From the NCBI GenBank assembly GCA_000091205.1, contig AP006491.2: a stretch of DNA of 64,000 bases. One strand, written 5' to 3'. The notes beneath the pieces were generated by a model. It saw nothing but the letters and a program-made list of their open reading frames with translations, did not search any database and was not told where the DNA came from. Shown in pieces: positions 17,980 to 60,200 of this stretch. A program made the translations under genes and the position numbers. The first letter of the stretch is position 1; every line of letters starts with the position of its first letter. This DNA comes from Cyanidioschyzon merolae (lineage: Eukaryota).

Positions 17980-19122
17980 TTACTTCATGTAGCGCTTTCC
18001 AACGAATTCATTAAACCTGGCAACCTCTCCTTTGGATCCGTAGCAGACCTGAGACCGGACGTCGGTGCCAGGAATCGGGATGTCCAGTGCACTCCGTTCA
18101 CCGTCACTGGAGGCACCGCCGGCGCGCTCGATTAGGAAGGCAACTGGAGCCACTTCGTAGAGTACACGAAGCTTTGCCGGCGCCGACGGGGATGCCGGGT
18201 TCGCAAACACTCCTTTGCCTTTGATGAGAATTTGATTACAGTCCGGCACCATGCCGCCTGTATAGCGTAGCTGATACTTGTTCTCCATCCAGTACTGGAC
18301 GAGTTTCGCGTACCCGGGGTTATCCTGGGTCGCCTTCAGATTACCTGGCGCGAACAGCTTACCCTCATTAATTGTGTAGAATGATTGCACAAGTACCCAC
18401 ATCCCATGGTTCCCTGAAAAGTTATCGACAAGGAGAAACTCATGCGTTCCGGGGATCCCTCTCACGGAAACCGATATTGAGGTTCTTGGCCCATAGACGG
18501 CCATACCGGCAGCTTCGAGTTCCCGTCCTGTTATACCAGTGAGACGCTTACCTCTCCAGACGCCAAAAATCGTGCCGACGGAAAAATTTGTATCCACGAT
18601 GGAGGACCCGTCGAGCGGATCCCATGCCACGGCAAACGTCGAGCCGCCGAGGTCCTTCTCAATGGGCTGCTCCTCGGAACTTCCGATAGCGACGACACGA
18701 GACGCCCGGAGCGCAGCCTCGATGGTTCGGTCCGCCAGCAAGTCAACTGCCAGCTGCTGGTCGCCGAACGCGTTCACGCACTCTTCCTTGTTGCAGGATG
18801 CAGTACGAACCTCGTAGCCGACGACTTTGCAAGCCATGAAGAGAGCCTCAATCGCTTTTGCCAGCTCCTTGTCCTCCTCCAGGGCTAGAAACTCGTGCAA
18901 ACGCATGCCTTCCACGACGCGGTCGTCAATTTTTGGCATGGACACGATGCGCGAGCCCTCTGCGGACGGTACCACCGACATGCGAACGAGCCGGCATGCT
19001 CGCTTTCCTGTTTGCGGCTGGCTCAAGCGCCGCTGCTCAGTGATGCACTTGCGTGCACTGAACACGAACCTCGACGAATGAGTTAGGAAACTCGACGCAA
19101 ACGCCAAATTAGCAGCCTTCAT
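17980..19122 (-). CDS. Sedoheptulose-1,7-bisphosphatase/fructose-1,6-bisphosphatase family enzyme (SBPase-like), ~381 aa, with a ~50-aa N-terminal presequence.
   Basis: AVAWDPLDGSSIVDTNFSVGTIFGVWRG, GPRTS..., RYTGGMVPDCNQILIKGKGVFANPASPSAPAKLRVLYEVAPVAFLIERAGGASSDGERSALD are near-collinear with plant/algal SBPase. The start is set at the ATG at 19122 (MKAANLAFASSFLTHSSRFV...), not at the 608-aa ORF start at 19806. Confidence 0.85.
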   Translation of the reverse strand: MKAANLAFASSFLTHSSRFVFSARKCITEQRRLSQPQTGKRACRLVRMSVVPSAEGSRIVSMPKIDDRVVEGMRLHEFLALEEDKELAKAIEALFMACKVVGYEVRTASCNKEECVNAFGDQQLAVDLLADRTIEAALRASRVVAIGSSEEQPIEKDLGGSTFAVAWDPLDGSSIVDTNFSVGTIFGVWRGKRLTGITGRELEAAGMAVYGPRTSISVSVRGIPGTHEFLLVDNFSGNHGMWVLVQSFYTINEGKLFAPGNLKATQDNPGYAKLVQYWMENKYQLRYTGGMVPDCNQILIKGKGVFANPASPSAPAKLRVLYEVAPVAFLIERAGGASSDGERSALDIPIPGTDVRSQVCYGSKGEVARFNEFVGKRYMK

Positions 19123-22100
19123 TCTACGTGGCACTGAAACAAGCGTCTGCGCAGAAACTGGAGGAGCGGCGCTTTGCTGCTCGCGTAGATCGCAGTCGTC
19201 GCCCCTGAAGGGGCGCAGCGGCCGCGGCGCGGACCCCGCCCAGCGACTGCCAGTGCCGCACCCATGCCGAAGCGACAGCTGCTGGCGCTCGGTTGCACGG
19301 CGCCCTGGACCGGCAACTGCGTGCGCGCATGGCATTGCGTGACAGTCACGAAGTTCCGCAATTGCCGCGGGTACCCGCAACTGTTTCCGTTTGCGTGCGA
19401 GCACGTTTCCACGCAGACCAGCGATCCGCGGTTGTGCGACGGGTATCAGCGCGCAGTGAAGCATCCGTCGTGCCACCAACATCCAAGCACCATCGACCGT
19501 ACGTGATCTCGGGAGGCGCTGTTGCCTAGCCTCGCAGTTTCTCGGCCGTGTCCGAATACTATAGAACGAGTCCAGTTTTGCTAACTCGGGCGTCAACATG
19601 AGAATTTCGTGACGCTTCGCACTCTCGAGAGTACGAACGTTTGCGGGATTCTGATACGACTGCTTCCTTTGCCCCTCTATTATTCGAGGCTGTCGATGCG
19701 TCTGTCTCTGCTTTCCCTCCAGTCCCGTTATCACCACCTGAACGATAGGCATGACAGCGTTCACGTTCCGTCGTCGCTGCGTTCGGCTGTTTTCTAAGCA
19801 TTTCATGCACAGAAGAAAGTTGATGTCTACGCTTCAAGTGCGATTTTCACCTTATTTGGGTTCGGCCTCGTCGCGTCCTTCGCAGAAGGTAGACCTGGGT
19901 GCGGTCAGATATTCGCATTCGGTCGTCGAACGCTGCTCGTCCAAGGGTCGCCCTGCGCCACGTGAACGCTCACTTCACTTGAAGCGATCGCAGCGATGAC
20001 TCGAGTCCGAGCCGAGGACGTTTTCCATAAAAACGCAACTGACGGGAGCCTCGGGGAGCATACCTCATGAGCGTGCAATCATAGTGCTGGTGTCGCGTGC
20101 AGCTTCGTCGATGGCAAAAAGACAGCTAGATCCATCTTTGAAACGTAGTCGATTATTTCACAAGTTCAGAGAACTTTTGGGCATAAGCTTGTGATCGAGT
20201 CGTTAGAAAAACGACGTCGCGTTTCCTTCGTCGTCGGTCCAGCGGCGCGAATTGCTGCGCGTGTCAGTTGTGTTGAGAAGGTAAGATCCAAAAATTGAAG
20301 GATGCGTTGGTTTAGCATGCTATTCCTGAGGAAAGGAGATGATTGTAGGATTGTACGTGCGCATTGCAATCCAATATGTGTTGTTTTACGTACCCTTATT
20401 CGACGGCGCCGCAAATCAAATTGATTCCGATGACGTAACGGATCCATGGTGTACTGAGTCGAAGGGGCAACTCAGAAAACACGACCGAGACTCCTGAAAC
20501 CACTCATAGATTTGCAACTTGTTATCGCCGTATCTGGAATGTCCAAAATGTATATCTGAAAAATTCGAAACAAATCGCTGTGCAGGAACAAATCGACGAG
20601 TACAGTGTTCCATTTGAGCATCGACGGTTCGTAGAGCAGGCGCTTATGCGGCAACCGACGCGGTGTGCAACGCTTGTCGCAGCGAGAAGCCGCTCGCCCA
20701 TACGGGGCGTGCTCCGGTGCCGCACCAACGCGTCCGTGCCAACGGACAGGCCACAGTCCCACTGGGCTTTCCGCTCCAAAGTCGCAGCGTGCGTGGCTAG
20801 TGTCGAACGCTCTCCGAGGCGCATCCGGGGCAGTCAGAGCTGGCAATCGGGTGTGCTGCGACATTTTCGTATCGCTTGCCGCTGGGTTATCGCAAGCGCC
20901 TCGCGGTGTCAAAGACATGTGCGTACTGCGCACTGCATGCCTGAGGAGCGCGCAACCCCTGCCAGCCTGGACCTAGTGGTTGCATTCCGTATTGGCCGAG
21001 GCTCTGTTCGCGAGAGCAAAGCACGTGTGCGCCCATGGCTCGATAACCTATTGCTTTTCACACTATTGCATTCCGTGAGAGCCGTGTTCGAAATGGTTGT
21101 GGATAGAAGTTCTTGCTGAACGCGTCCAGAACTTCGCTGCGAACAGAGACTCATTTTATCCAAAGGCGGGCATGCAGTGTACTTTTGGCGCCGATGAAGA
21201 CCCCACACACATGCCACGAATGAAAAAGGTCACTGAGCGTAAACAAAAATCGTCACTTGTTTCCATTCACGATCAAGACTCGGAGGGCGTCGCCATCTGG
21301 ACAGCCCAGTTTGGTGCATCGGAGAAACGCTTCAGCATTCGTCCCGTCTACCAGCTCGGGGCGTTGTCCAGTCTCGAAACCAAATCCATGAACAACGATG
21401 GCGTTGCTGAGCGCTCACGAGACAATATCCGGAGGCGCCATTGACGTCCCATGGAGCAGCGCGCGCATTACCTGGAGTGTGCGGCAGCGCATTGAGTGGT
21501 GCGCACGTCTTCGAGCAACTGGCTCGGCCAAAGCATGTTTCTTGATCGGCGGCGTCGGCGTCGATAAGCTGTCTGCCGCTGCCCGCGGCGATATATCGCG
21601 AAACCCGAATGGAGCTCAGAGCGCTGCCTCTCGCATTACAGTACAGACGACCGAAGCACATCGGGCACAGGTCGAGCACATCCCCAAGCGATGAAGCATC
21701 GCGTCCTCCATCGTCGAGAACGCGTCGGAATAACCCTCAAACCAGAACTCGGATCCACGCTCACGAGAATCCAATCGATCGCGCTGGACTTGTGGTCTGC
21801 GAAGTAGTACCTGCAGTCGCTCACCGTGAATAACTCCAATGCACCATTTGGATGTCATGACAATACAGTCCAAAAAGAACATGTGCTGCATCGGTCCATA
21901 CGCTAGCGCGATCAGCCTGGGTGCCTCACTCAGGTCGATGAGATGGAATGACCGATGCGTAGCACATGTATGGGCATCCACGAAAGCTCGCTCCATATCA
22001 GTGAGAACACTGGATCCCAGAAAATGAACGCGATGATCAGTCGGCGGTAGCGCAGTTCCCGGCAAGCACAGCGCCACGATGCGTAGCGATCGCGTTGCCC

Positions 22101-51774: not shown

Positions 51775-53047
51775 GTTTCCGGTACAACAAGGCAGTCGTA
51801 CCAGTGCGTTAAAGTATAGTGCACCAACTTGTTTTGTCGTCATCGCCAATGCGATACCGTTTTAGCATTGCGTTGGCGATCGGGAAGAGGTATAGAAACA
51901 AGAGGAAGCGTATGCGGATGTTGCTCATGGTAGAGGTTCTGTCACATGGACAGGTGTCGCACTATTTCGAGGGCGCGAGATCCACGTTTTCGATCAAGAA
52001 TGCGATGGATTCAATTTCTTGCGTCGTGCGCGGGGTTTGAGGAACAGCAGAGATCCCTCTCTCTTGGTACGTATGCCTTTCCGGAATCCACTCGATGAAC
52101 CCAGCTTGATGATGGGTTTCACGGGGCGAAATTGCTCCACGAAGCATCATCTCTTCCCTGGCTGGCTGTTGACCAAGTTGACAGCGAATAATTCCAGGAT
52201 AGGAGGTCTCATTTCGTCGACGCAGCCGAGAAGAGCGCGTCTTGAGGAAACGCGGGCGCTCGGGTTGCATGCGCATGCGACGGGACACCAAGATGCCGCT
52301 ATACTCAGGCAGCTTCAATACGTCATCCCATGATACTCGGGGATGTGCCTAGTCAGGGTCTCTTGCATGCTGCGGATACATGCGCGACTTCCGCAACGAG
52401 GCGCTGGATGACGCTCGTCTTTGTTTTGCTTCGCTTTTGGCAGGAGACGCGTCAGTCTCGCATCGACGGACCGCTGGGCGTGCATCCCCATGAACCGGAC
52501 GGGCGCATGCGAGCCAACGTGGACATCAGCCCGCGAGATAGACGGCGTGCATCGACGAGCGGAATAAAGCCTGCAAGTACACCAGCACACTTGTTCATGA
52601 AGAAGCGTATACGTGCGTATACGCGTGAGCGACGGCCTGTTGACGCGCACTGGTGCACACCCGTGGGCCCCATACACGCTGACACGAGCGTACAGCGATA
52701 CACCTCTGGTGTGTGTGTTTGTATGTGTGACACTGGGTACACGTCTCTGTTGGCCTCGACGTCTCCTAGTGTCCGTTCCCGCACGCACAAGCACGATCGC
52801 AGCGTTTCGACTCGTGAACACACATATCGCTAGCACGACATGCTTGCCTAGAACACAGTTCATAGCTGCCCATTCCCTGATCGTTGGCGTATGTTTGCAA
52901 AGCGGCGCATCGCATGACATTGCATCATAACGCACAGGGCGTTGCGCGATGATAATGACACGTCTCCGACCGAGACAACCCGGTACGCTGTACTGCGTCG
53001 CGCCTGCAAAGCGATGAATACTGAATCCTGAGTCATGAGTCATGAAC

Positions 53048-53215
53048 GATGCGACGCCACCATCAGCGATCGATCGATTGATTTGACATAGTGTGGCGCT
53101 GCGTGCGCGCGATGCGGCGCCACCATCACCGATCGATCGATTGATTTGACGTAGTGTGGCGCTGCGTGCGCGCGATGCGACGCCACCATCAGCGATCGAT
53201 CGATTGATCTTTGAT
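53048..53215. repeat. 63-bp tandem repeat, ~2.7 copies.
   Basis: The unit gatgcgacgccaccatcagcgatcgatcgattgatttgacatagtgtggcgctgcgtgcgcgc is repeated head to tail. Each unit contains a near-inverted repeat gcgacgccac...gtggcgctgc. Confidence 0.9.
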
Positions 53216-53839
53216 ACTGAGCGCTGTCCTGCAGGTGCACACCGGCGCTGGTGATAGCCTTCTACTTGTGGTCGGTGTAGGTCTTCTTGTCGCCCGTTCG
53301 GAACAGTGTTGAAACTCATAAAAGGTGCACTGTGTTGGTGAGGCAAGTTACTGGGCAGCGCGACTCGGAAAGGTCCTTTGCGATGTGCCGTCTGCAGCTG
53401 CGGGGTGCCGGCTGACGAGAAGCGCTGCGCTCGCAGGATCGAGGCTGGCTACCTGGCCTTGTTTGCTGTTGACAGCTAGCCCTGCGGAACAGGCCTCTCG
53501 CGAGCGTGTGGGCGAGAGCTGTACCGGTGGTCGCGATACCGCGCTTGACAGTTCGAGGGCGCGTCTTGAGCGTGAGCGAGTGATCGAGTCAACGGGTCAA
53601 TCAGGGCACACACCGCTATTGTCTGCTGCGCGGGACGCCTATTGAGTTGCAGGGGTAACCCGGAGTCGAACGGCATCAGACAGTCGTCAACCTTTCCCCA
53701 GCAGCAGCGGGCGTGCGAGCAGCACCGTGTCCCGGCACTCTGTCGGATTCCTCGCTCGGGAGGCGTTCGAAACGCACGCACCGCGCTTTGCCCCTGAGCG
53801 GCGTTTCCGCGCACATCCACAGACGCAGCGTGAAGCGCA

Positions 53840-54877
53840 ATGGACGAACGCGACGTTCTTCGGGTAGGCGTCTGCGCAATGCCGAAGAAAGTCGAGTCTG
53901 AGCCGATGCAGCGGATCCTCGCTGCGCTCACCTCGAGCCGCGTTGCGCACTTCGAGCCGATGATCTTCGATGCGAAGACGCTGTTTGAGCGGCCGATCCA
54001 CGGGTGGCCTGTGTGCGATGCGTTAATTGCGTTCCACTCGGAGGGCTTCCCGCTGGAGCGTGCCATAGCGTACGCGGAACTACGGCGCCCGTACTGCTTG
54101 AACGGCCTGCGCGAGCAGCGGATGCTGCTGGACCGGTCCAAGGTGTACGAGGTGCTGGCACGTGAGCGGGTGCCAGTCCCGCGGCACATTGTTGTGCGCC
54201 ACGACGGAGCCGATGTTGGCCGGACGGATACGCGATTTGTCGAGCACGACGACTACATTGAGTACTGCGGAGAGCGGCTGTTCAAGCCGTTTGTGGAGAA
54301 GCCGATTGACGCGGAGGACCACCGCGTATGCATCTACTACGCACGGCCCTTGTACGGGCGCCGGCGGCTATTTCGGAAGACGGCGAATCAGAGCTCTGTG
54401 TTTGAGCCCGGGTGGCGCCGTGTCCGTCGCGAGGGCGCCTTCATATACGAGGAGTTTATCCCGAGCGAGCACCAGAGCGACATCAAGGTTTACGCTGTTG
54501 GGCCGGAGTACGCGTACGCGGAGCGGCGAAAGTCACCCGTGGTGGACGGTATCGTTGAGCGGAACGCGCACGGCAAGGAGCTGCGATTCCCTGTTGAACT
54601 GAGCACCGCGGAGCGCTGCGTGGCGGCGACGATCACGGCGGCTTTCCGGCAGTTTGTGTGCGGCTTTGATCTCATTCGGCACGCCGACGGCAATGCTTTC
54701 TATGTGAACGACGTGAATGGCTTCAGCTTTGTGAAGGGATCCCAGTCCTACTATGAGTCTTGCGGGCGTATTCTGGCGGAGCATCTAGCCCGCGAGTGTG
54801 CGCGAAGCGCTGCGGTGGATGGCGAGCGACCTCGCAGTGCCCAGCGCTGCAGCGCATCGGACGGGAGCACGCCCTAA
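53840..54877 (+). CDS. Diphosphoinositol-pentakisphosphate kinase (PPIP5K/Vip1-type) ATP-grasp kinase domain protein, 345 aa. There is no histidine-acid-phosphatase domain.
   Basis: RVGVCAMPKKVESEPMQRILAAL, WPVCDALIAFHSEGFPLERAIAYAELRRPYCLNGL, GERLFKPFVEKPIDAEDHRVCIYY, RLFRKTANQSSVFEP, YIYEEFIPSEHQSDIKVYAVGPEYAYAERRKSPVVDGIVERNAHGKELRFPV, CGFDLIRHADGNAFYVNDVNGFSFVKGSQSYYESC are collinear with the human/yeast PPIP5K kinase domain. Confidence 0.85.
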   Translation: MDERDVLRVGVCAMPKKVESEPMQRILAALTSSRVAHFEPMIFDAKTLFERPIHGWPVCDALIAFHSEGFPLERAIAYAELRRPYCLNGLREQRMLLDRSKVYEVLARERVPVPRHIVVRHDGADVGRTDTRFVEHDDYIEYCGERLFKPFVEKPIDAEDHRVCIYYARPLYGRRRLFRKTANQSSVFEPGWRRVRREGAFIYEEFIPSEHQSDIKVYAVGPEYAYAERRKSPVVDGIVERNAHGKELRFPVELSTAERCVAATITAAFRQFVCGFDLIRHADGNAFYVNDVNGFSFVKGSQSYYESCGRILAEHLARECARSAAVDGERPRSAQRCSASDGSTP

Positions 54878-56210
54878 CGGCGTGTAAGTTCGGGTTGGAT
54901 GGAGTACGCGCTGCATCCGGCAGACAAGAATCCTGTAAAGGAACATGTTTATGGGAGCGTAACTCGGAGCCCGTTGCGCTGAAATGCCGCTAGCATCACT
55001 CGGGATTCATTGATACCTAATGCGGGATATCGTGCAAACGCCTTTCGCGGCAGACGAGAGTACGCATGAGCACTGGGTAAATGGATCATAGAATCGGAGA
55101 GACCGCCTTGTGCCGTCGTGTGTTCAAGAGATCGCCGTCTGGTTTCCTGTAGCCAACGGCAATTGCAGCTGATGCGCCCGCCGCTGATGTATGGCACGAA
55201 CATCGTCGCATAGGCGCTCGGCGAAAATAACTGCTTACTGTTTTCCGATTTAGTCGCCAGTTCCGCGCACTTTGCTGAGCAAAAAAACGTTCAGCAATGC
55301 GTCGGCGATTCCAGCACCTCCTCAAATGTAAAAGCGAAGCGCTTGCGCACATAAAAGCATCGATGATGTGTTCCACGTATGCGATAGATGGGCCTTACGC
55401 ATACCAAGCGGCGTCAAAGCAAGGATCGTTCGCGTTTACGACTAAACACAGTGGTAAAGTGTCGTAGCCATGAGGCGCAGCTGTCGCCTCCGTGCGCATT
55501 CGTTCCCGCAACGCAACGATGGCGACAGCACACCTACGATAGCAATGCAGGTCTCCATTATCACAGCGCATGGGCTTGTGCAAACTTCACGCCTGCCCCA
55601 TGCCGACCTCAGATAGCGCCTGTCTCCTAAGCAGAGCGCTCCACCGAAGCAGCGCACGCTGAACAACACAACAAAGTAGCAGCAACCAGTTCGCGCCTCA
55701 GATACAGTGCCTACCCTACTTTGGCGATATCAACGCAAACGAAGATGCCTGCGCGCGCAAATGCACGGACACACGCACACGGATGCGCCGCAACGTGTGC
55801 CCTCACGCGTGCGCATTGCCGTGCAGCGATGGTGCGTGTCCGATGAGCGCGTGAACGCCGCACGATCCGCGATTCGAATCTACCGGAATGACGTGCACGC
55901 AGCGGTGCGCATGCGTGCCGGCTCGATGCGCCTTATTTCTTGGTGATTCGCGAGCGCCCTCGTTCGAGCAGTCGGCACGATGCTCGCCCAGCTGCACGCC
56001 GATCACTCAAACGAACAGCCAGCGGGGGTTCTGCGCGCGCGCTGCGGCTGCGGCCCCCGAGCGCCATCTCCGAGGCGCAAAGCGCGGCGATCGCTGCATG
56101 CCCGTCCGAGCACCGTGCCGTGTCACGCACATGCGGCGACTGCTGCGCCAACGACATTCAAGAAGCGACTGGAGCAACTGTTCCAGCAGCAGCAGTAGTT
56201 GCAATGCCTA

Positions 56211-56966
56211 TCACTTGTTGCACGCAAAGGTCATATCCGCCTCGACGGCAAGTTCGCCATCGACGTAGCCTCGCCCGCGGCACTTAGCGATGCCAAAGCG
56301 CTTGCGTAGCGCCATCACCTGGCACTCCATCACGAGCACGTCACCCGGACGCACCGGCCGCCGCCAGCGCAGATTCTCCACCGAGGCAAACAGAAACAGC
56401 CTCCCAGGCTCGCTGTCTGGACCGCTCAACAGCATAAGGCCGCAGCACTGCGCGAGCGCCTCGAGCTGCAGCACACCAGGCATAATCTTGGCAGACGGGA
56501 AGTGGCCCTCGAAGAACTGCTCGTTGTACGTGACGTTCTTCACCGCCACGATCCGCTGCTCGGCCGCACACTCCAAAACCTTGTCCACCAGTAGAAACGG
56601 GTAGCGGTGCGGGAGCACGCGCTCAATGGCCTCGGCGTCCAGCACCGCTGCAGGCAGCGCAGAGCGCCGCGACAGCTCCGCTACGTCCGTGGGCGTCGAC
56701 GGCGCCGGCACTGCACTCGTCGCGCTGGGCGCTCCGCCGTTCGCAGCCACCTGCTCGGCGCTGGCGCGTGGCCCGCACCACCGCCGCTGGCGCGGCTGTG
56801 TGCGTACACCGCAGTCAGCCTGGGCAGCGCTCGTCCTCTGGCACGGTCGCAGCAGCAGCAGCGGCGGCGGCTGCAGCCTCGCAGTGGGGCCGAGGCAGAC
56901 CTCTCGGCAGTTGCGCCTACGAGCGAGCAATACGCTGTCTGCTCGTCCAGTTGAACAGAGAAACAT
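56211..56966 (-). CDS. fabZ: 3-hydroxyacyl-ACP dehydratase FabZ (type II FAS) with a ~110-aa N-terminal presequence.
   Basis: HRYPFLLVDKVLECAAEQRIVAVKNVTYNEQFFEGHFPSAKIMPGVLQLEALAQ...GDVLVMECQV is the FabZ hot-dog fold signature. The N-terminus is R/S/A/P-rich. Confidence 0.85.
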   Translation of the reverse strand: MFLCSTGRADSVLLARRRNCREVCLGPTARLQPPPLLLLRPCQRTSAAQADCGVRTQPRQRRWCGPRASAEQVAANGGAPSATSAVPAPSTPTDVAELSRRSALPAAVLDAEAIERVLPHRYPFLLVDKVLECAAEQRIVAVKNVTYNEQFFEGHFPSAKIMPGVLQLEALAQCCGLMLLSGPDSEPGRLFLFASVENLRWRRPVRPGDVLVMECQVMALRKRFGIAKCRGRGYVDGELAVEADMTFACNK

Positions 56967-57116
56967 GTACGAGGCCTATGTTGGAGCAACACACTGTATA
57001 ATCGAGGGTGTTGCGCACAAGCCTAGCGGCGCTCAAATACTGAATACGTGTGCATACCCAAAATCGCAGGCGATAAGTGTCGGTCGATGCGCGTCACGCA
57101 ATACGCGTCATGCGAT

Positions 57117-57265
57117 CTGCGCAGTGCGATGTGCGTAGGTCGATACGCATAGTGCGATGCGTGTAGTGCGATGCGTGTAGGTCGTTACGCGCAGTGCGAT
57201 GCGTGTAGTGCGATGCGTGTAGGTCGATACGCGCAGTGCGATGCGTGTAGTGCGATGCGCTCATG
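57117..57265. repeat. Minisatellite: a ~42-bp higher-order unit (x~3.7) built from ~14-bp subunits agtgcgatgcgtgt.
   Basis: gcgcagtgcgatgcgtgtagtgcgatgcgtgtaggtcgatac is repeated head to tail. It translates as the repeated HYTHRTARIDLHAS peptide in the artefactual ORF 57094..58059(-). Confidence 0.9.
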
Positions 57266-60200
57266 CAGCCTCGACAGCAGAGGCGCTGAACACTGGCAGC
57301 GGTGCTGATACTAGCCTTCGCAATCAACTGCATACCAATGCTGGTCATCAGGAACGATGCGCTGGCTGCTCGCAGCGTCAAGTGCTCCTGGCCGGCACCG
57401 AGCTGCTGGCGAGCATCCGTGCGCGCGCGCAGTCGACCGCCGCGACGCCACCGAGGCCTGCCAGTGTCCAAGTTCCAGACGCGCCGCTCAGGCGACCGCG
57501 GCCTCCTGCAACGTCCGAACCTCCCCTGGGGGCACAGATACGGGACCCCGCGGCACACGCGCCTCGCCGGAAGGCAGGTCCATAGGAGCGCCCACCGCGC
57601 CACCTCTGGTGACGGATACCGCTCCAGGTACAGGAGGCAATGGGGTTGCGGCACGCGTAGCAGCGCAGCGGATCCATTTTTAGGCTCGTGCTTGTGAATG
57701 CGCTCCCGAGACGCCGACGAGTGCCTCTGAACTGCATGCAGTCGATGTGCTTGCGCGCTCCCGACCTGCTCCCGAGTCGACAGCAACGCCAATCCTCTGG
57801 CTGGAAAGCAGCGCACTCGGGGCGAGGTATTCCAGCGGCAGAAGTGTGTGCCTGCATAGCGCCGTTGCTGCAGGCGCGACACCGCTGCGCCGAATCGCCC
57901 ACTGTGCTGATGCCGGTCCCGCTGCAGTCCTGCGCTTCGGAAAAGGCGCCCAGCCTCATCTTTGATGCCGTTCCTCATGAGCGAGTGCGACCAGAGATAG
58001 CACTGCACGTCACCGCAAGAAACATCACTGCATTGGCCTGCTGCACGAAAATCAGCCAAAATCGCGCACAGTCCGCGTCGCTACACCATTTGCGGACTCC
58101 ACGCGTGCCTTGGGTTCTGGAAATGTGCATGCTACGCGCCGAGGCATCCAGGTCAGCGCTGGCAAAGGCCTGCGAACCAACCGACAGCCGGTGCTACAAA
58201 CGTGGGCGCAGGTCGCTCATGGGCATGCGCTCGCGTTCGTGACGCTTCTCCAGTCGGTGTCGCGCGCTGCTCGTCATCGCGCACACGTTCTCGCGTAACC
58301 GCTGGAGGCGTGGATCGCAGCTCGCCATCACCGTAGTCGACAGCGAACAGCTCCCGCTCCACGAGTGTCGCCCGCCAGGGCATCGGCGCATTCATACGAT
58401 CGCAAAGCGCCGCGAACCCGCACAGCCATGTCAAAGAAACGGATCGCCTCCACTTGCCGAACTCGGGCGTGCAAATTAAGGTTTAGGTCTCTGCCCAGTG
58501 TCACGAACAGCAGCTTCTGCAGGCTTTCTCTGCGACTGCCTCCTTTTCCCATTTCTTTTCCGGATTCACATACGCCAATATCTCCGTTGCTTGTAACTCC
58601 GTTTACGCTGTCGAAGGATGTTGATGGCAGCGTTCAAGCTCGATTTCGACGCTCCGGATTGTTCTTGACGCATTTCGTGTACAGGCAGAAGTTGCGAACG
58701 ACAGCCGGCTTTGCCATTTTCATCTTCCTTGCATACATACTCGATGCCCTTGGACGCAGCGGTGTATCTTGACTGTGGCCAGATGGTCGCGAAGGTACCC
58801 CAAACTTCGCATTCCGGGTGCTGCTGTGTATCGGCGAAGCGATCGCTGCGTCGCTCGGGAAATGCCGGTGACAGGCAGAGAAAGCTTTCACCGATGCCGA
58901 CCGCGTTTCAGCTGCCGCTGTCGTATGCGGCGATCACGTCTTTCTGCTGCATGATTCTTTTGAAGAGCTATCTGTCTGCTGCATACGCAAGCGCAAACTG
59001 TTCCATATGATGGACAATCTGTGGAAGCTGATTTTGTCCATGACGAAGTAACCATCAGAAGGATACCTCAGACCGGAGTACAAATCGATAAATCTTGATC
59101 CGTCTACGTTCTCTTCGTTCAGCGCTACGACGCACTCTGCACTGGAAGCGATCGCTGCGGTGACTGGTCTCCAAGTCCAATAGTCTTTTCTACTGTGAGC
59201 AGAACAGACGGGAGCCCTGTGGCAGCATGCACCGCGACGAGTATGAAACTGTTCGTGAATGCCGTTTCTTTGATGACCATAGAGAGGGGCGGATTTCTCC
59301 TTCGAACCAAGTCGATACTTTTTCTTGATAAGTGCTCTGTACTTTCGACATGTTGTTATGAACAAGTCGTCAGGGGCCCAAGTCCTATAGTTTACGTCGT
59401 TCATCCAGCGCCGCGAATCGCTGCGCGCATGAGTTGCATGGAAACAGAAAGATCGAACAGTTGAAGAACGCGTGACTTGAGCGTATTGCGCTTGAGGAAA
59501 ACAGAAGAATAGAGGCTTGTATTTATGAATCGAATAATGATTTAGGTCATTTTTACCAATCCTCATTCGATGTTTTCCTGAATCATCTTGTTCCCGATGA
59601 CGTTCCAAATTCCAACCGCCAAGTGTCAAAAGAGTCACCCCGAGAACACGACCGGGAATCCCTAAACGAAATATGAATCCATAAGCCCATATTGCTGCAC
59701 TTTCATGTCAAGGCTATCCCTGGAGAGCATGCTCGGAACAAAAAATCTCGTGGTACGAACAGAGCGATCAGTGCTGTGCCACTTTAATCTCATATGCGCT
59801 GATAGACTTTCACATGCATTGCGTTCCACACCCAGGGGAATGGCATCAAATGCTTCTTCACGGTTGATAGTGGATGCGTTCGAAGTGCGCTCAGTTGAGG
59901 AAACAAAAATTCAAGGGAAACTTATGGACATGAAAGTCGGGGATCCTGGAGCCCGATCATCGCCGAGCGCCGACTAAAAACGAGAAAACCCTCTCCTCGC
60001 CGATCGTCGAGTGAAAAAGGGCAAGCGACAAAGAAGAAGAGAAGGAGAGCTTGACGAGAAAAGTGCTTTGCCCGAGGAGACAATGACGAGAATGCAGTGG
60101 CCATGAGGGCACCAGCTTGAGGACGCCTTGCACTGGTGAGTTCAAACAGCGACAATGAACGCAAGGAGTTCGTGAACCGAGACTTCACCGCCGCTATCTA

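Follow-up and report, generated by a model that had tools for sequence, protein, structure and literature searches.

The window analysed here, a stretch of 64,000 nucleotides from Cyanidioschyzon merolae, carried on its plus strand a gene for a PPIP5K-type kinase (53840..54877). In the ORF list its coding sequence began at an ATG and specified 345 amino acids before a TAA stop codon (54875..54877). The product matched BAM80081.1 / XP_005536367.1 of C. merolae 10D at 100%. Naming it as a PPIP5K represents a small practical gain, because the gene was labelled only "hypothetical protein, conserved" or, in UniRef and UniProt, "ATP-grasp domain-containing protein". An in-frame TGA (53831-53833), three codons 5' of the ATG, makes an N-terminal extension impossible and thus fixes the N-terminus. 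Alignments obtained with tblastn 5' of the ATG crossed two stop codons and displayed no real similarity, and a longer N-terminal reading of the ORF was rejected.

On the 3' side, a spacer of 1.33 kb (54878..56210) separated the kinase gene from a convergent gene on the minus strand (56211..56966), assigned by Pfam to a FabZ/FabA-type dehydratase of 251 aa. This convergent neighbour was also found in Cyanidiococcus, in Cyanidium and in an independent JGI metagenome contig (L003) sharing 98.9% nucleotide identity with the window. The ORFs of the spacer did not exceed 126 aa, and neither a tRNA nor an Rfam match nor phosphatase-domain similarity was found in it. The first-pass annotation of this DNA had placed short ORFs and the FabZ gene within 54878..56210; the short ORFs are as described, and FabZ lies just beyond the interval. 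The N-terminal extension of the FabZ product (about 115 aa) was not conserved with Cyanidium and may be organelle-targeting.

The gene order 3' of the kinase gene in Cyanidiococcus, Cyanidium and L003 comprised a convergent DMRL (lumazine) synthase gene and then FabZ. The DMRL synthase gene was missing from the window, in which 401 unrelated bp (54886-55286) took the place of the 1766-bp segment 2523-4288 of L003. DMRL-synthase (riboflavin pathway) similarity was detected nowhere in the 64 kb, and the 401 bp held no remnant of the gene. Further 3', collinearity with L003 broke abruptly at 58389, inside a gene coding for an S41 (C-terminal processing) peptidase, of which only the last 78 codons were kept in the window (58156-58389, 98.7% identity to L003). 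Such a break within a gene points to a site where 10D has undergone a rearrangement or a deletion compared to its relatives. Two repeat arrays flanked the kinase and FabZ genes. The first, 5' of the kinase gene (53047-53235), consisted of three copies of a 63-nt unit, was also present in L003 and accounts for a repetitive "ORF" at 52315..53346; the second, just past FabZ (57056-57279), displayed a 14-nt spacing.

The other large ORFs of the window encoded eukaryotic housekeeping functions, including SMC, fructose-bisphosphatase (FBPase), RHD3/Sey1 GTPase, HECT ligase, GPN-type ATPase, cyclin, adenylate kinase, CAP-H2, a TAF5-like WD40 protein, an S1-domain protein and calreticulin; none of the large ORFs coded for a histidine phosphatase. 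The FBPase ORF (17980-19806, minus strand) specified 608 aa with FBPase domains beginning at residue 311 only, indicating either a long N-terminal extension or a mechanical ORF start upstream of the real one.

The 345-aa protein harbored a complete PPIP5K/Vip1 ATP-grasp kinase domain in which every catalytic and substrate-binding residue examined was kept. The PPIP5K2_N domain (PF18086) covered residues 8-98 (53861..54133) and scored 108.2 bits against a cut-off of 35, over profile positions 2-90 of 90; it includes K16 and K17, equivalent to human K53 and K54. The RimK-like ATP-grasp core was placed by Pfam and by alignment at residues 200-300 (54437..54739), the RimK profile (PF08443) scoring 24.4 bits against a cut-off of 21. 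Apart from these two domains Pfam reported nothing in the protein, and PF00328 was absent; a Pfam run had been suggested as a check in the first-pass annotation. The best PDB match obtained with phmmer was the human PPIP5K2 kinase domain (3T7A, E=1e-92), followed by those of yeast Vip1 and Schizosaccharomyces pombe Asp1. The alignment ran from query residues 4-324 against chain residues 6-318, with 47% identity over 312 aligned residues, which bears out the collinearity of ORF 53840..54877 with the PPIP5K kinase domain proposed earlier.

The AlphaFold2 model, computed from 36 sequences, reached a mean pLDDT of 92 and a pTM of 0.88. Its top Foldseek matches were the PPIP5K2, Vip1 and Asp1 kinase domains, with TM scores of 0.87/0.94 and an rmsd of 1.6 Å on PPIP5K2, while RimK and ITPK1 ranked far lower (TM 0.53-0.60). 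The last structured element of the model was a helix spanning residues 302-328. The remaining C-terminal tail (residues 329-345, 54824..54874) was modelled with low confidence and was not conserved in the alignment, and tails differed in length and sequence among the Cyanidiales, whose proteins ranged from 329 to 374 aa. With the fold ending at residue 328, the protein stops about 17 residues past the kinase fold, slightly more than the about 10 residues first proposed.

Human residue numbers were obtained as the PPIP5K2 chain index plus 36. This offset was considered valid since every residue that we take to be a key one in human PPIP5K2 (K53, K54, R213, K214, K248, R262, R273, R281, D309, D321, N323 and K329) fell on the expected amino acid. 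In the pairwise alignment, K53, K54, R134, K187, H194, R213, K214, E237, E238 and D246, as well as K248, R262, K263, R273, R281, D309, D321, N323 and K329, were identical between the human and the algal protein. Within the ATP-grasp core, K216, R230, R241, R249, D277, D291, N293 and K299 of C. merolae correspond to human K248, R262, R273, R281, D309, D321, N323 and K329. Among 14 and among 36 aligned relatives, most of the catalytic and substrate-binding residues checked did not vary. Two deviations were observed. Human K103 was replaced by E68, and the Gly-rich stretch preceding R179/K180, which reads GGGSQ in human and GGGC in most short forms, was L-Y-G-R with a one-residue deletion in C. 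merolae. The altered stretch was specific to the Cyanidiales, and both deviations may weigh against a functional kinase.

The PF00328/RHxDRTPK domain required of a canonical bifunctional PPIP5K was not part of this polypeptide, and searches for it along the DNA were negative. With the N-terminal parts of 29 PPIP5K phosphatase domains as tblastn queries, the best E reached in any of the six frames of the window was 0.054, while the kinase parts of those proteins all matched 53.8-54.8 kb, at 1e-81 to 1e-94. Twelve phosphatase segments of 308 residues, taken from full-length proteins, had no match in the 64-kb window; these segments matched a positive-control locus with E values down to 1e-140, and kinase and phosphatase positive controls together ranged from 1e-80 to 1e-140. 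The RHxDR[TS] motif occurred in none of the six frames of the window. Phosphatase similarity was likewise not found within about 10 kb of the PPIP5K gene at five related loci (L001-L004, L087), each searched over about 20 kb. A phosphatase remnant or exon 3' of the kinase gene was accordingly discarded, being absent from all frames of the window and from the five related loci. The earlier statement that no phosphatase domain follows in any frame thus held with 41 queries (best E 0.054), and a downstream phosphatase exon, raised with it as a way in which the reading could fail, was excluded for this locus in the window frames and at four orthologous loci.

The short gene was conserved beyond the 10D strain. 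L003 contained the same 345-codon ORF ending at the same stop, with seven nucleotide differences affecting three amino-acid positions, and the 90% cluster of BAM80081.1 comprised 38 proteins, 329-345 aa in length, from numerous samples and metagenomes. Orthologues of 331 aa in Cyanidiococcus, 374 aa in Cyanidium caldarium and 330 aa in Rhodosorus each had a convergent gene 13-950 bp 3' (140 bp in Cyanidium). Values of dN/dS between genera ranged from 0.11 to 0.25, which implies purifying selection on the gene. The kinase-only state is therefore inherited in a lineage including Cyanidioschyzon, Cyanidiococcus, Cyanidium and the distant red alga Rhodosorus, and is not a local accident. Cyanidiococcus yangmingshanensis possessed two kinase-only copies on one chromosome (CCYA11G3040 and CCYA11G3064); one annotated Cyanidiococcus copy was 362 aa long, with a tail running beyond the end point of the 331-aa copy.

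Domain, sequence, structure, synteny and selection evidence together uphold the stand-alone PPIP5K/Vip1 kinase, lacking a phosphatase-like domain at its locus, that was first proposed from this DNA. The accompanying statement that such a form is uncommon also agreed with the family at large. When 1.84 billion representatives were searched exhaustively with HMMER, 2684 relatives were retrieved, and among the best 150 of them, 95 were at least 850 aa long and 101 carried the phosphatase motif. The Cyanidiales cluster stood alone at 559 bits, all others scoring at most 325 bits. Ten of the next-best relatives were looked up: nine were at least 900 aa long, and seven could be attributed by source name or accession, all to unrelated taxa, e.g., Platysulcus, Capsaspora, flatworms and oomycetes. 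A word-indexed protein search with the 345-aa query displayed nothing longer than about 600-680 aa among the matches listed, whereas most relatives in the exhaustive search were 900-2100 aa long; conclusions on domain architecture should therefore not rest on a word-indexed search alone.

Further kinase-only proteins were recovered using a profile built from short forms. They included, besides the 330-aa protein of Rhodosorus marinus (a red alga of another class, with the convergent gene 13 bp 3'), a gene model of 373 aa in the glaucophyte Cyanophora paradoxa and complete transcript ORFs in the glaucophyte Gloeochaete wittrockiana (316-325 aa) and in Heterolobosea sp. BB2, a heterolobosean (360 aa). 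Dictyostelids were represented by Cavenderia (388 aa), Acytostelium (348 aa) and D. discoideum (475 aa).

PPIP5K bifunctionality has been described as kept throughout eukaryotes, Mycetozoa (slime moulds) being the sole exception (PMC13573052), and the species table of a eukaryote-wide survey of inositol kinases included no red alga or glaucophyte (PMC8024741). Our literature search found no paper tying Cyanidioschyzon, rhodophytes or glaucophytes to PPIP5K architecture. The kinase-only architecture is already known from Dictyostelium, and the red-algal case adds to that type. The kinase-only proteins of red algae are clean and conserved, so that at least one further major lineage, a photosynthetic one, appears to do without the pairing of kinase and phosphatase; two glaucophytes likewise have ORFs or gene models of the kinase-only type.

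The short forms displayed some signs of relatedness. In a neighbor-joining distance tree, the Cyanidiales sat in a group of 15 proteins that were all short. Their sister group contained short forms only in 152 of 200 bootstraps, short forms making up 15% of the other taxa, but bootstrap support for exact clades did not exceed 24%, and a leave-one-lineage-out HMM comparison gave no clear preference. The short forms that clustered came from red algae, glaucophytes, dictyostelids, a heterolobosean and metagenomes (P0005, P0290, P0023, P0095, P0301, P0302, P0319, P0071, P0110, P0229 and P0255). Three columns (C. merolae numbering) distinguished the short group from 91 full-length proteins: T181 was found in 10 of 12 short proteins and in 0 of 91 full-length ones, Y226 in 67% against 4%, and F272 in 75% against 5%. 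Full-length proteins had V or I at 181, H at 226 and T or N at 272, and Rhodosorus had all three residues of the short group.

The short PPIP5Ks of Cyanidiophyceae, Rhodosorus, Cyanophora, Gloeochaete, dictyostelids and the heterolobosean might represent one old kinase-only lineage, either an unfused ancestral form or an ancient paralogue, rather than several independent losses. This scenario is doubtful. The same clustering would also arise from long-branch attraction, or if the proteins had converged once the domain was lost. A common origin, suggested by the distance tree and the signature columns and confirmed neither by the bootstraps nor by the HMM test, was held possible but unproven because of the low clade support and the undecided HMM comparison. 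If there were one such lineage, the bifunctional design would not be ancestral to all eukaryotic PPIP5Ks.

The gene is best read as a functional, free-standing PPIP5K/Vip1-type ATP-grasp kinase making 1-InsP7 and 1,5-InsP8, with the phosphatase role fulfilled in trans, as an inherited state; we give this reading a probability of about 0.8. By analogy with Dictyostelium, and given the intact active site, the enzyme would most likely transfer the ATP gamma-phosphate in vivo to the 1-phosphate of InsP6 and of 5-InsP7, yielding 1-InsP7 and 1,5-InsP8, respectively. The C-terminal histidine-acid-phosphatase-like domain, which opposes the kinase in canonical PPIP5Ks, would at no point be carried by this protein, and the 1-beta-phosphate would thus have to disappear through dilution or through other pyrophosphatases acting in trans. 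Pyrophosphatases of the NUDIX/DIPP and PFA-DSP families also act on these inositol pyrophosphates (PMC13573052), and in C. merolae a DIPP-family Nudix hydrolase is fused to PPK1 (PMC12526157). The unidirectional inositol pyrophosphate flux proposed in the first-pass annotation was too strong a claim, since such families act on these molecules. The DIPP-family Nudix domain of the PPK1-Nudix fusion CMM026C is a plausible candidate for the phosphatase substitute. Polyphosphate in C. merolae is made by this bacterial-type PPK1 fusion (PMC12526157, PMC3680246), and the alga possesses two SPX-domain proteins, the usual receptors of inositol pyrophosphates (PMC8717665).

Alternatively, the ancestral gene could have been split, the phosphatase half being a separate C. 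merolae gene elsewhere and both activities residing on two polypeptides. The sequence searched amounted to 64 kb of the genome, which leaves room for such a gene. A scan of metagenomes with a phosphatase profile returned, among the best 80 of more than 512 loci, none from the four samples with a Cyanidiales PPIP5K, which by itself does not amount to a negative; these loci came mostly from marine and other environmental samples. The surroundings of the gene at the five related loci were devoid of phosphatase similarity, and Mycetozoa, in which the kinase-only form was already known, yielded no related phosphatase gene (PMC13573052). We consider a split gene unlikely.

It is even less probable that C. 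merolae also has a full-length PPIP5K, the short gene being an additional kinase-only copy. The word-indexed search would hide such a paralogue, as nothing above 600 aa was among its matches listed, and it was dropped as evidence on this point. In the exhaustive search, though, the Cyanidiales cluster was isolated from next-best proteins belonging to unrelated taxa in the seven of ten looked up that could be attributed, and UniProt names the protein only generically, by its ATP-grasp domain. The C. merolae genome is moreover small and has few paralogues.

A change of function, by which the ATP-grasp domain, freed of its phosphatase domain, would act on a different substrate, could be invoked from the altered Gly-rich loop and from the distinctive T181, Y226 and F272, at positions where full-length proteins carry V/I, H and T/N. 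It appears highly improbable, as all PPIP5K2 residues binding inositol phosphate and Mg-ATP were identical and the short form of Dictyostelium complements vip1-delta (PMC8885430).

Finally, although canonical members of the family are 900-2100 aa long, an artefactual shortening of the ORF, whether through faulty assembly, a frameshift, an overlooked intron or a nonsense mutation as the gene decays, can be practically dismissed, given the very few introns of C. merolae, the stop reproduced in L003 and in other genera (which excludes for this locus the assembly error or frameshift envisaged at first), the 38 clustered proteins from many metagenomes, the similar-size proteins with convergent 3' genes in three further genera, the dN/dS values, and a phosphatase remnant in no frame.

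A free-standing kinase with its phosphatase counterpart in trans would make C. merolae a tractable system for studying how InsP8 levels are set without a built-in phosphatase and which enzyme substitutes for it, since the alga is nearly intron-free, haploid and easily modified by homologous recombination, and makes polyphosphate through the PPK1-Nudix fusion.

Compared to known systems, the C. merolae protein shares the ATP-grasp fold with ITPK1 and RimK-type enzymes, but these belong to a different family, with TM scores of 0.53-0.60 in Foldseek, identities of 13-18%, and neither the PPIP5K2_N signature nor the PPIP5K substrate-binding residues. Human PPIP5K2, yeast Vip1, S. pombe Asp1 and plant VIH1-2 have kinase domains 41-47% identical to it, which adopt its fold and agree with it in the catalytic and substrate-binding residues. 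In these canonical PPIP5Ks the kinase domain makes 1,5-InsP8, a molecule of phosphate signalling, and the phosphatase domain destroys it. They differ from the C. merolae protein, which stops 17 residues past the kinase fold, by regulatory regions and by a His_Phos_2 domain with the RHxDRTPK motif at the C-terminus, for a total of 900-2100 aa. Dictyostelium discoideum Ppip5k (DDB_G0284617) consists, as in C. merolae, of a kinase domain only, and restores vip1-delta phenotypes in yeast despite lacking a phosphatase domain (PMC8885430); it is thereby established as a Vip1-type kinase in yeast, whereas the C. merolae protein is known from sequence and a structural model. Dictyostelids belong to another supergroup, the Amoebozoa, and their proteins (348-475 aa) have long low-complexity C-terminal tails, unlike C. 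merolae, and V instead of T at position 181. Distance trees nonetheless place them together with the Cyanidiales protein, and Y226 and F272 are common to both.
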